From NCBI GenBank assembly GCA_037446215.1, contig JBBIJB010000016.1:8292-18585 (forward strand): a DNA stretch of 10,294 bases, read 5' to 3'. Positions 1 through 3,000 of this stretch are shown in pieces. Origin of the DNA: Armatimonadota bacterium. Its GTDB lineage: Bacteria > Sysuimicrobiota > Sysuimicrobiia > Sysuimicrobiales > Humicultoraceae. Made by a program: the position numbers. How positions within the stretch are numbered: the stretch's first letter is position 1; every line of letters starts with the position of its first letter.

Positions 1-3000
1 TGAGCACCGGGGGGATCGGGGGAGTCCATCTCGGCGAGGGCACGGGAGACGTCTCCGCAGACCTGGGCGCGCTCTGCAGGTACCCCGTGGTGGTCGTCTG
101 CAGTGGGGCCAAGGCCATCTGCGATACAAGGAAGACCGCCGAGGCTCTGGACTCCCTCGGCGTGACCGTAGTCGGGTTCCGGACGGGCTGGATGCCTGCA
201 TTCCTGGCGAGATCGGAGAGGGTCGCGGTGCCGCACCGCGCCGACTCGCTAGGAGAGATCGCCTCCATAGCGACGGCCAAGCTGGAGATGGGGAGTAGGA
301 CGGCGCTGTTGGTGGTGCAACAGCCGCCCGAAGAGACGGCACTAGAGGAGAGCGTCCAGGATCGGGCTGTGGCGGGAGCGATCGCTCGCGCCCGCGCGGC
401 CAGAGTTGAGGGTGCCGCGCTCACACCCTATCTCCTGGCTGCCATCCTCGAGGCCACGGACGGCAGATCGCTCGGCTCCAACCTGGCGCTGCTCGAAGAG
501 AACGCCCGGCTCGCGGCGGCTATCGCGGTCGAGTTGGCAGTACGCGACGAACCGGCGGGCCGGTGAGGCGGGAGCCCACCGGAGGGAATAAAAGCCCGCG
601 CGGGGAAAGACCGAACAGCGTGTGCGCGCTGGCACGGACCAGACCGGAACCGGGAGGACGGCTTGACCGCGAGGACGGTGCGGGGCAGGGGAGAGGGCGG
701 CGAGAGCGCCGGGGCGACGATACGGGCGGCCAGGGCCGCTCGGGGCATGTCGCTCGCGGATCTGCACACGGCCACGAAGGTGGCGGTGCGACTGCTGGCC
801 GCACTGGAGGAGGACCGCTACGAAGAGCTGCCTCCGATCGCGTTCACGCGGGGCTTCGTGAAGTCCGTTGCTCGTGAGCTGGGCCTGGACCCGGTACCGT
901 TGCTCCGTGCCGTGGAGTCCGCGATGGGAGCGGCAGCCCGCACCAAGCCCGGGGTGGCATCCCTGGAGGTAGCGGTCGTCCTGGCCGCCAGGAGATCGGG
1001 CCGGCGACGCCTCCTCGCGGTGGCCGGGGCTGCCGCGATCTTCCTGGCTGCGGCGGTGTCCTACTCCGTCTATCGTCAGGTCAGGGAGTTCGACCTTCCC
1101 TTCCCAACCGCGGTCACACCCTCTCCGGAGCCGGTCTCGCCCGCGGCTTCCCCGCAGGCGGCACCTTCTCCTCAGGTCGCGTCCCCGGCGCAGCCGGCCA
1201 CAGCGGCCTCGCCGCCGACGGCCGACATCGGGTCGCAGGCTGGGGCAGGCGCAGGGGCGAGCGTTACGATTGAGATGAGCGCCACGGGGCGTTCGTGGAT
1301 ACGCGTCTCTGCCGGGGGCAGGCTGGTCTACGAGGGGTTCATCGGGGCGGGCCAACAGCGCAGGTGGCAGGCGAGCGGCCCGGTAACGGTCCGCCTGGGC
1401 AATGCGGGCGCGGTGGCCCTCACGGTGAACGGGAGGGCGCTGGGAGTGATTGGAGGAAGTGGTGAGGTCGTTGAGCGCACGTTCGGCGGTGAGTAGCAGG
1501 GGCCTTCCGTACGGTTCTGGCAGGCAGGACACGCCATGAGAGCCGAGATCGTCTCAGTGGGGACGGAGCTGCTCCTCGGTCAGATCACAGACACCAACGC
1601 CACGTTCCTGGCCCGCGTGCTGGCAGAGCATGGGATCGGCCTCCTGGCCAAGCAGACCGTCGGCGACAACCTGGCACGCATCACAGCATCCATCCGGCTG
1701 GCCCTCGGCCGGTCAGATCTGGTCATCACGACCGGAGGACTGGGCCCGACGGAGGACGATCTGACCGCGGAGGCTGCTGCGGCCGCGGTCGGTGTGGCCA
1801 TGGTCTTCGACCAGGAGGTGGCCGACTCGATCTCCCGCTTCTTCTCGAGGCGGAGGCGGCAGCCCCCGGACTCGGTCTTTCGACAGGCCCGGATACCAGA
1901 GGGAGCAGAGGTCGTCCCGAACCGCCACGGCACGGCACCCGGCCTGATCCTCCCCGTTGGTGACGGCCGGACCATCTTCATGCTGCCCGGAGTCCCCCGA
2001 GAGATGGAGGGCCTCGTAGCCGATGGCCTGCGGCCCTGGCTCGAGTCCCGGGGAGGGGCCGAGGTCATACGCTCCAGGGTCCTGCGGATCACCGGCCTCG
2101 GCGAGTCCGCCGTCGAGGAGCTGGTGAGGGATCTGATCCACGGTGAGAACCCGACGGTGGCACCGCTGGCCAAGCTCGGCGAGGTGAACCTCCGTATCAC
2201 CGCCAGAGGCACTCCGACAGACGTGGAGGGTATGCTGGATAGGGTCGAGCAGGGGCTCCGCGATCGGCTCGGTGACGCGGTCTTCGGTAGGGACGGGGAG
2301 AGCCTCGAAGGGGTGGTGGCAGGGACCCTGATAGCGAAGGGCCTGACGCTCGCGCTCGCGGAGTCGTGCACAGGGGGCCTTGTGGCCGCCCGCCTGACCG
2401 ACGTGCCGGGAAGCTCTGCCTTCATGCTCGCCGGGTACGTTGCTTACAGCAACGAGGCGAAGGCGCGCGACCTGGGCGTTCCCCTTGATCTGATCGAGGG
2501 CCACGGTGCGGTAAGCCGTGAGGTCGCCGCTGCCATGGCGACCGGGGCGCGATCGAGGGCGGGCGCGGACATAGGCCTCGCGATCACCGGCATAGCCGGG
2601 CCGACCGGAGCCACTGAGTTCAAGCAGGTAGGGCTCGTCTACATAGCGATCGCCACCGACGGAGGCGAGATGGTCCGAGAGCTGCGCTTGGGCAGCGAGC
2701 CGGGGAGAAAGGCGCTGCGTCACCTGGCAAGCCAGGCCGCCCTGAACGCGCTGAGAATGGAGGTCGCGAGGAGGTGACGCTGTACCGGACGTTCATCTCC
2801 GTGGAAATCAGCCCCGAGACCAGGGGCCGAATCGCCACCGTCCAGAAGCGGATGCAGGGGGCGGGAGCCGAGTTGCGCTGGGTGAGGGAGCACAACCTCC
2901 ACTTCACGCTGAGCTTCCTCGGTGAGATCCCGGCGGCGCAGGTCGCCCGGGCGGTAGTGGCCGCGCGTACCGTCGCGGAGAAGTTCCGGCCGTTCAAGGT

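Follow-up and report, generated by a model that had tools for sequence, protein, structure and literature searches.

N-glyceroyl alkylamine phosphoglycolipids were reportedly described in Bacillota by Bale et al. in 2025. Moorella thermoacetica is an alkylamine producer in Bacillota (PMC13274423, Table 1, which also has six strains with no alkylamines reported), and PGL, which is diacylglycerol-based, is the described phospholipid of Thermus thermophilus, for which the third-chain and head-group enzymes "have not been identified" (PMC9636437). TamH of the tambjamine pathway combines an AAR-like reductase with a class III transaminase and converts C12-ACP to a C12 amine (PMC9594044). PigE of the prodigiosin pathway (NF053554, PDB 4ppm) is likewise a fusion of an AAR-type reductase, with GxxGxxG and Cys motifs, to a class III aminotransferase. 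In the conventional route to phosphatidylglycerol (PG), PgpP is the PGP phosphatase of Bacillus subtilis (PMC11804483). Lgt is described as able to use PA or CDP-DAG, inefficiently, and Escherichia coli pgsA-null suppressor strains as surviving on PA and CDP-DAG (PMC8027125).

The window analyzed here is a stretch of 10,294 nucleotides from an Armatimonadota bacterium whose genome (the source genome, G000) is 91.27% complete in 149 contigs; G001, G057, G080, G082 and similar labels denote other genomes of the comparison set. The survey's finding for this genome was that PgsA, PLD-type synthases and GpsA are missing, which was taken to imply either a new route to PG or a different head-group chemistry. 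No lipid analysis of any member of the phylum was found among the records listed by a literature search.

The rodZ-cinA junction and the missing head-group enzymes

In the window, rodZ (663..1496, + strand; HTH_25 PF13413 E 9e-20, RodZ_C PF13464 E 7e-18) is followed by cinA (1536..2777, +; CinA PF02464 E 2e-51, with MoCF_biosynth PF00994 and CinA_KH PF18146). The spacer between them (1497..1535) is 39 bp long and, as read directly from the sequence, accommodates no ORF, which rules out a hidden gene. This is what we take to be the position of pgsA in the gene order of Bacillota, and the earlier description of rodZ abutting cinA at the usual pgsA site is borne out. The context is provided by the C-terminal part of a psuG-like pseudouridine-5'-phosphate glycosidase gene upstream (87..566, +; PF04227 E 2e-40) and, downstream, by a thpR/LigT-like 2',3'-cyclic phosphodiesterase gene (2774..3364, +; PF02834 E 2e-30) and recA (3474..4541, +; PF00154 E 2e-139). 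A rodZ homologue is present in 87 of 94 phylum genomes, and cinA adjoins rodZ in four of five further genomes of the phylum. The wider rodZ-cinA gap of G080 was considered as a pgsA site and ruled out, since an AidB-like acyl-CoA dehydrogenase is encoded there.

The enzymes were then sought in the entire source genome by profile, HMM and motif searches. Neither PF01066 nor PLDc_2 (PF13091) produced a match at E<=10. Searches of all six frames under --max with three home-built HMMs for CDP-alcohol phosphotransferases gave a best E of 0.66-1.9 or nothing; as a sensitivity control, the home-built model recovered divergent non-training members at 1e-6 to 5e-14. Motif scans detected no divergent CDP-alcohol phosphotransferase, and the full HKD motif is absent from the predicted proteins. 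The GpsA C-domain is absent from the source genome and from all four other well-assembled phylum genomes (0/5), and the N-domain in G000 falls below the cut-off. These searches confirm the reported loss of all three enzymes, and the absence of a PgsA-type enzyme at this locus and in this genome is real.

Most of the phylum is alike, as the survey had stated. PF01066 matches occur in 25 of the 94 genomes, a lower bound because a divergent member in G057 escaped detection, and the related genomes counted are not independent of one another. Matches are found in 15 of 54 high-quality genomes; the 39 with none include G080 (100% complete), G082 (99%) and all eight members of the source organism's own genus (0/8). 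The 25 matches were considered as displaced PgsA and rejected: the three proteins tested scored 36 bits, 29 bits and no match against a pgsA cut-off of 109 bits, and the neighborhoods varied. Two of the matches belong to accessory cassettes with a second CdsA. PLDc_2 matches, not assigned to a class, were seen in two of five further phylum genomes.

A substitute phosphatidyl transferase was also sought. Review by eye of 143 singletons among the membrane proteins of G000 yielded no candidate, nor did the matches listed between G000 and the first 1.12 of 2.15 Mb (52%) of the chromosome of G140, a member of Deinococcota. The divergent CDP-alcohol phosphotransferase of Deinococcota has no homologue in G000. 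An FkbH-type glyceroyl donor was rejected as its motif was not found. The sole weak transferase lead is a metalloenzyme-superfamily protein (C38:6279-7196).

Retained lipid genes and a putative four-gene amine module

The genes surrounding the missing step are kept, in agreement with the survey's list of PlsX/Y/C, CdsA, PgpP and Lgt. The cdsA gene (C12:26732-27541, +; PF01148 E 2e-53) lies in an uppS-cdsA-dxr-rseP neighborhood; CdsA is present in 87 of 94 phylum genomes and as a single copy in 52 of 54 high-quality ones. PgpP (C29:16371-16886, +), which carries a DLDNT motif, scores 114 bits against the TIGR01668 cut-off of 89 and is retained in all five genomes tested, which comprise Deinococcota and G000. 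PF09419, found in 64 of 94 genomes, is a poor probe for PgpP and matched the wrong gene in G000. The source genome has two or three matches to Lgt, together with PlsX, a canonical PlsY and two PlsC-like proteins. It also carries GlpK and GlpD-like genes, consistent with the earlier suggestion that glycerol kinase may supply G3P. Because Thermus and Deinococcus retain GpsA and G000 has these two genes, the loss of GpsA is a matter separate from the head-group question. As in the B. subtilis Kennedy pathway, CdsA and PgpP are found in Bacillota-like neighborhoods; unlike there, PgsA and GpsA are missing and the rodZ-cinA site is closed.

Four further genes are nearly universal in the phylum. In G000, they encode an orphan protein with a reductase fold, X (C33:3967-4866, -), an acyl-ACP-reductase-like protein, R (C33:2850-3953, -), a PatA-like class III aminotransferase (C29:6766-8052, +; PatA E 4e-126, PigE-C E 4e-113) and a START protein (C52:16647-17114, -). 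X was detected in 90 of 94 genomes (54/54 of high quality), R in 88 (53/54), the aminotransferase at E<=1e-100 in 87 (54/54) and START in 89, with 86 at E<1e-49. X immediately precedes R in all 17 examined loci with a stand-alone R. The order aminotransferase-START-R-X is seen in 37 of 80 metagenome X loci, and 32 of the 38 with at least 4 kb upstream contain the aminotransferase, START and R; in eight of the 80, X lies beside an SCP2 protein and a permease with R not nearby. An R domain is also present on 75 of 83 long X homologues, and an aminotransferase domain on none (0/83). The aminotransferase and R are on separate contigs in G000, where the C29 protein matches the operon HMM at E 2e-146 versus 7e-93 for the next paralogue. 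A search of the genome contigs with R as the query returned one locus. The genes invoked here to explain the losses (X, R, the aminotransferase, START, the PlsY-R fusion, pgpP and cdsA) all lie outside the window.

R matches PigE-N (E 2e-60) and is a homologue of cyanobacterial AAR by sequence (E 6e-20), at 84 bits versus the TIGR04058 cut-off of 450 (PDB 6jzq). Among 14 named controls, AAR-family matches were confined to Synechococcus, Thermus and Deinococcus. R has GxxGxxG as GATGSIG and a catalytic Cys motif, AC-M-A-E. The Cys motif recurs in 40 of the 42 copies from metagenomes and in all 52 fusions. TamH and PigE share these two motifs and the class III aminotransferase; unlike those single-chain proteins, the genes here are separate, have START and X as partners and score far below the PigE cut-off. 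They are also single-copy core genes with housekeeping neighbors (greA-clpC, alaS).

The predicted model of X (pLDDT 96.6) is closest to AAR 6jzq (Z 13.9, rmsd 4.6, 249 residues aligned) and to 9e4s, a putative terminal amidation domain (TAD; Z 12.5); Foldseek returned only weak two-domain matches, the best with a TM of 0.54 to TAD. X shares the fold of both structures and had no sequence match in the PDB, Pfam or NCBIfam. Since hhalign found no profile similarity between X and R (probability 0.2), residue equivalences between them were set by eye. The conserved site lacks its Cys in X, and D-R replaces the glycine loop; the protein also has an invariant Asp/Arg/Lys set and a membrane-dipping hairpin. 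It is also found in Pelotomaculum, Phascolarctobacterium and Selenomonadales.

R also occurs fused to PlsY (C11:19281-21056, + in G000) in 29 of 94 phylum genomes, as counted from the R search; most members have a stand-alone R. The fused PlsY domain scores 69.8 bits, below the TIGR00023 cut-off of 137, with GSGNIG changed to SPHNLG or AYNLG and HRxN to (H/Y/F)KE(H/N). Deinococcota have F or Y in place of the motif His; the residue varies within the phylum and is retained in G000. Our assessment of this domain presumes the roles usually given to PlsY motifs 1-3. Canonical PlsY (E<1e-40) is present in 57 of 94 genomes and in only two of the 26 family-f1 genomes that belong to genera other than the source organism's, and G001 (97% complete, 4 contigs) has PlsY solely in the fused, motif-altered form. 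Second stand-alone PlsY paralogues (~200 aa) were set aside as probably belonging to another pathway, judging from DegV/DAK2-like or NAD-epimerase genes read in their neighborhoods.

Comparison with Deinococcota and a proposed lipid pathway

The gene set was compared with that of known PGL producers within Deinococcota alone. Both groups have X (~50% identity), a PlsY-reductase fusion (48%), a PatA-like aminotransferase, CdsA, PgpP/YqeG and Lgt. X is present in 119 of 121 Deinococcota genomes and the fusion in 61 of 61, which fits the survey's suggestion that the fusion may share this lipid chemistry; Deinococcota also have a stand-alone PlsY in addition to the amine module. Unlike most Deinococcota, the phylum largely lacks both a CDP-alcohol phosphotransferase and GpsA and mostly has a stand-alone R. 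The statement that Deinococcus lacks PF01066 is correct for the control genome but not for the group, since a divergent PF01066 protein is present in 87 of 121 genomes.

Published Tn-seq data for Thermus HB27 (Table S3) cannot, by that paper's own caveat, separate essential genes. In them, TT_C0090 (annotated COG0558; 231 Deinococcota isolates) is highly permissive with a mean Z of +1.33, as is plsX (+1.23). Fewer insertions are recorded for yqeG (-0.71; 343 isolates), patA (-0.70), lgt (-0.67), TT_C0187, which includes a reductase domain (-0.66), and cdsA (-0.65), and TT_C0761, likely X, is at just -0.49.

The phylum shares its near-universal amine genes with Deinococcus and Thermus, and we therefore lean, with modest confidence, towards its making their type of N-glyceroyl-alkylamine lipid instead of PG, with CdsA feeding the pathway, PgpP trimming a glyceramide phosphate and another enzyme transferring the phosphatidyl group. 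Gene presence and absence, operon order, fusions, fold and motifs were observed directly. By analogy to characterized enzymes, R would convert acyl-ACP to a fatty aldehyde, from which the PatA/PigE-like aminotransferase would form a long-chain amine, with START as a possible carrier. For the later steps and the lipid itself, we infer that X, a membrane-dipping protein with a reductase fold and no catalytic Cys, may link the amine with a three-carbon intermediate of glycolysis (1,3-bisphosphoglycerate or glyceraldehyde 3-phosphate), yielding an N-(3-phosphoglyceroyl) alkylamine. A phosphatidyl group from CDP-DAG, made by CdsA, would be placed on the 2-OH by an enzyme that is neither a CDP-alcohol phosphotransferase nor a PLD protein; PgpP would strip the 3-phosphate from this PGP look-alike; and a glycosyltransferase, for which the GT2 protein C50:8277-9851 is a candidate, would attach a sugar. 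The diacylglyceryl donor for Lgt could be the alkylamine lipid or PA/CDP-DAG, and G3P would come from GlpK/GlpD. Besides the gene distribution, the Tn-seq contrast between the permissive TT_C0090 and the less often hit yqeG, patA, lgt, cdsA and TT_C0187 speaks for this reading. Against it, the divergent CDP-alcohol phosphotransferase of Deinococcota could perform the phosphatidyl transfer there, and the searches described above yielded no transferase candidate in G000. The permissive plsX, the modest value of TT_C0761, the caveat of the Tn-seq paper, the occurrence of X in Pelotomaculum, Phascolarctobacterium and Selenomonadales, and the eight metagenome loci with X but no R nearby also weigh against it. 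The fuller version, in which the phylum has no PG, a third transferase class is shared with Deinococcota, X is an amide former or the transferase and PgpP is reassigned to glyceramide phosphate, is put forward tentatively.

Alternative explanations and implications

Of the two options raised by the survey, the gene content supports a different head-group chemistry as the better fit over a hidden PG synthase. A new route to PG is not required, because Lgt accepts PA and CDP-DAG, if inefficiently, and PgpP is kept in PGL-making Deinococcota. It is nonetheless conceivable, though unlikely, that a PGP synthase of an unrecognized family still makes PG; CdsA, PgpP and Lgt would then have their Bacillus roles, and the amine module would serve another purpose. 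The missing step is precisely the one between CdsA and PgpP, B. subtilis uses PgpP to dephosphorylate PGP, and GlpK could provide G3P; however, no candidate synthase was seen in the searches of G000, the 343 Deinococcota isolates keep PgpP as well, and the four-gene module is left unexplained.

We consider it quite unlikely that the organism makes no CDP-DAG-derived head-group lipid at all and has a membrane of glycolipid plus PA/CDP-DAG, with the amine destined for a non-phospholipid product, CdsA kept as the source of the Lgt donor and PgpP acting on another substrate. The E. coli suppressor strains offer a precedent, G000 encodes multiple GT2 proteins as well as a cluster of lipid A genes, and a new enzyme class becomes unnecessary. 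Yet donor use of PA and CDP-DAG is described as inefficient, single-copy CdsA and PgpP would be explained by side roles alone, and the module is also core in Deinococcota, known for PGL.

Replacement of the G3P backbone itself is likewise quite unlikely. Here, N-alkyl-3-phosphoglyceramide would resemble lyso-PA, PlsC would acylate its 2-OH, and CdsA, PgpP and glycosyltransferases would act on the two-chain analogue, so that GpsA, PgsA and often PlsY would be dispensable. The absence of GpsA (0/5), the patchy canonical PlsY and the fused-only PlsY of G001 agree with such a scheme, but Deinococcota combine the module with GpsA, a stand-alone PlsY and a diacylglycerol-based PGL, G000 keeps PlsX, canonical PlsY and GlpK, and the head-group transferase would still be missing. 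It is highly improbable that pgsA lies in unassembled DNA or is too divergent to detect: the 91% completeness, the 149 contigs and the missed G057 member allow for it, but the 39 high-quality genomes with no match, the closed pgsA site, the passing sensitivity controls and the low scores and varied neighborhoods of the matches tested argue otherwise.

The link between the amine module and the phylum-wide loss of PgsA and GpsA is drawn here. The presence of PgpP or Lgt in a genome is no proof of PG. The phylum amounts to a natural subtraction experiment, in which PgsA, PLD synthases and GpsA were dropped while CdsA, PgpP, Lgt and four uncharacterized genes were kept. It narrows the Thermus PGL pathway to named loci, TT_C0761, TT_C0187, TT_C0553 and TT_C1623, in a tractable organism. 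If the favored alkylamine-lipid reading holds, a phosphatidyl transferase belonging to neither known family should exist, along with a lipid that may serve as a biomarker for this uncultured phylum of soils and hot springs.

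Phospholipid genes lost and retained

The survey had found the genome under study (91.27% complete, 149 contigs) to lack CDP-alcohol phosphotransferases, PLD-type synthases and GpsA while keeping CdsA, PgpP, Lgt and PlsX/Y/C, and both halves held up. No match to PF01066, the CDP-alcohol phosphotransferase family that includes PgsA, was obtained at E ≤ 10, and profile searches detected neither PLDc_2 nor GpsA. Three home-built HMMs, one trained on 17 phylum members, one on Thermus-type members and one on a pool of 41, were searched against all six frames with --max and gave E 0.66 at best for a CDP-alcohol phosphotransferase; as a sensitivity control, the first picked up divergent members that it had not been trained on, at 1e-6 to 5e-14. 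Among the retained genes, cdsA lies in the order uppS-cdsA-dxr-rseP, pgpP follows mltG with a score over the TIGR01668 cut-off, and genes for Lgt, PlsX, PlsY, two PlsC-like proteins, GlpK and GlpD-like proteins were found. The sequence of C41:2119-9075 reads as a cluster of lpxD, lpxC, fabZ, lpxA, an lpxI-like gene and lpxB, which argues that the organism is probably diderm.

The window carries a psuG-like fragment, rodZ (663-1496), cinA (1536-2777), thpR, recA and recX. Read directly, the spacer between rodZ and cinA is 39 bp, the interval in which pgsA is situated in Bacillota. The two genes adjoin in four of five further genomes from five families. In the fifth, G080 (locus L457, G080:C19:33300-35500), an AidB-like acyl-CoA dehydrogenase gene is inserted between them. 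The window also holds a 1425-aa ORF (5167-9444, + strand) in which a UvrD/PD-(D/E)XK helicase-nuclease runs into RmuC. Because the C-terminal cysteine motif of the nuclease continues in another frame up to a stop that immediately precedes the probable start of rmuC, this ORF looks like two genes fused by a one-base slip near 8225, be it an assembly error or real.

Across the phylum, PF01066 was matched in at least 25 of 94 genomes (a divergent member in G057 escaped the search), in 15/54 high-quality genomes and in 0/8 of the same genus. The neighbourhoods of these matches varied, and all three that were scored fell far under the pgsA cut-off. CdsA is present in 87/94 genomes, GpsA was absent from all five well-assembled genomes tested, and unclassified PLDc_2 matches occur in two of five other genomes. 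The unpublished genomes G017 and G025 are counted here, and no claim hangs on these two alone. Accessory cassettes, in which a second CdsA accompanies a divergent CDP-alcohol phosphotransferase, were seen at L059 (G057), L060 and L023 (G077) and L021 (G079); two of them also carry an acyltransferase. Close homologues carry the NCBI label 'Armatimonadota'; together with the single-order structure of the phylum, this points to Sysuimicrobiota (CSP1-3). The word 'lipid' does not occur in the available portion of the paper describing Sysuimicrobiota (PMC11604079).

A conserved reductase-aminotransferase module

The PlsY-reductase fusion raised by the survey lies at C11:19281-21056. Its acyl-ACP-reductase-like C-terminal domain, here R, is a relative of both PigE-N and cyanobacterial AAR and occurs in 88/94 phylum genomes, fused in 29 by our count and otherwise stand-alone. 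Every fetched stand-alone copy (17/17) is directly preceded by an orphan gene, X. NCBI annotates it as 'quinate 5-dehydrogenase', and it matches nothing in Pfam or NCBIfam. X is present in 90/94 phylum genomes, including 54/54 of high quality, and 75 of 83 long X homologues carry an R domain. Among 80 metagenome loci, selected as the best matches to an X alignment, 37 show a class III aminotransferase, a START protein, R and X in this order, and all three partners are present in 32 of the 38 with at least 4 kb upstream. The aminotransferase occurs in 87/94 phylum genomes and the START protein in 89/94; their orthologues in the genome under study are on other contigs. Hand-picked pairs with both matches on one contig place the aminotransferase at a distance of 5-10 kb from pgpP, around alaS-ruvX-mltG, in 13 genomes (C29:6766-16886 in the genome under study).

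The predicted fold of X (pLDDT 96.6) matches AAR (Z 13.9, rmsd 4.6, 249 aligned) and a putative terminal amidation domain (Z 12.5), assigned to carmabin synthesis in the portion available of bioRxiv 10.1101/2024.10.28.620694, above all other chains. X has no conserved Cys; R34, G93, D148 and G210 are kept in 109/109 sequences. In protein P0187, X is fused behind a BioF/serine-palmitoyltransferase-like PLP domain. Four genomes (L279-L282, in the unpublished G017 and in G024, G016 and G018) have a second, more distant X copy (~51%), beside what we read as an adenylate-cyclase-like gene or GNAT-like and aldo-keto reductase genes.

The fused PlsY domain (C11:19281-21056; L111; L332-L361) has altered motifs and conserved HNLG and KE(H/N)L of its own; in Deinococcota the motif-3 His is replaced by F or Y. 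It is the sole PlsY-family gene seen in several genomes of one family, f1. Since its motifs are altered and it is missing from three large families, it is no required step.

Comparison with Deinococcota

Of the 14 named controls, only Synechococcus, Thermus and Deinococcus gave a match to the AAR family. In a survey of Deinococcota centred on the genome of a Trueperaceae locus, X was found in 119/121 genomes and the PlsY-R fusion in 61/61. The main phospholipid of T. thermophilus, a phosphatidyl-glyceric alkylamine, carries GlcNAc; no enzyme has so far been identified for either its third chain or its head group (PMC9636437). N-glyceroyl alkylamines also occur in Moorella thermoacetica, and TamH, which combines an AAR-like reductase and a class III transaminase, turns C12-ACP into the C12 amine (available portions of PMC13274423 and PMC9594044, respectively). 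Our literature search, which covered papers outside subscription, returned none linking the module genes to the alkylamine lipid. Thermus and Deinococcus keep GpsA, so its loss in the phylum under study is a separate matter. The link to the lipid is complicated by the presence of X in Pelotomaculum, Phascolarctobacterium and Selenomonadales as well. At eight Pelotomaculum-like metagenome loci (L231, L241, L244, L246, L247, L262, L274, L276), X is accompanied by an APC permease and an SCP2-like protein, and R is not found nearby; this arrangement may serve amine or lipid salvage.

The control that Deinococcus also lacks PF01066 does not generalise, since 87/121 Deinococcota have such a protein, mostly divergent and of 257 residues, which could be their head-group transferase. 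In the available part of a Thermus HB27 Tn-seq study (PMC13140390, Table S3), TT_C0090 is highly permissive (+1.33) and occurs in 231 Deinococcota isolates, compared to 337-343 for cdsA, lgt, yqeG (PgpP), TT_C0187 and TT_C0761; yqeG, patA and lgt belong to the least permissive fifth. We equate TT_C0761 with X because it is labelled COG5322 and lies next to efp, as X does in 19 of 30 Deinococcota X loci, and TT_C0187 with the PlsY-R fusion because of a shared neighbour. The pattern speaks weakly against TT_C0090 as the Deinococcota head-group transferase, as the authors themselves note that essential genes are not told apart in these data, plsX stands at +1.23 and TT_C0761 at only -0.49.

A possible route and its alternatives

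Given the gene content, gene order, fusions, fold and motifs observed, we lean towards the view that, instead of phosphatidylglycerol (PG), the phylum makes an alkylamine phospholipid of the Deinococcota type. By analogy, R would reduce acyl-ACP to an aldehyde and the aminotransferase would convert it to an amine, with START as carrier. We infer the later steps: X would form the N-(3-phosphoglyceroyl) amide, a transferase would move phosphatidyl from CDP-DAG onto it, PgpP would then dephosphorylate the product, and glycosylation would follow. A possible enzyme for this last step is the GT2 at C50:8277-9851; it shares 40-44% identity with the GT2 found behind cdsA-dxr-rseP in two Deinococcota loci. 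Before PgpP acts, the intermediate would look like PG phosphate, which would explain why PgpP outlives PgsA. Lgt is no proof of PG, since in E. coli it can draw, if poorly, on PA and CDP-DAG as donors (available part of PMC8027125). No phosphatidyl transferase candidate emerged from the membrane proteins of the genome under study or from the part returned of a comparison with 52% of one Deinococcota chromosome. A small metalloenzyme-superfamily protein (PF01676; C38:6279-7196), 34% identical to L414:13807-14580 of a Deinococcota genome, is a weak lead for a phosphotransferase.

A hidden PG synthase is unlikely. Slightly less probable is that no head-group phospholipid is made at all; CdsA and PgpP are kept. 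Glyceramide as the lipid backbone, favored by the patchy occurrence of canonical PlsY (57/94 phylum genomes by our count), seems a shade more doubtful again. An artefact is very improbable.

The kind of lipid proposed here is already known, but its enzymes are not. Our analysis places the phylum-wide loss of both PgsA and GpsA next to a near-universal module, a combination that would require a transferase outside both known families.
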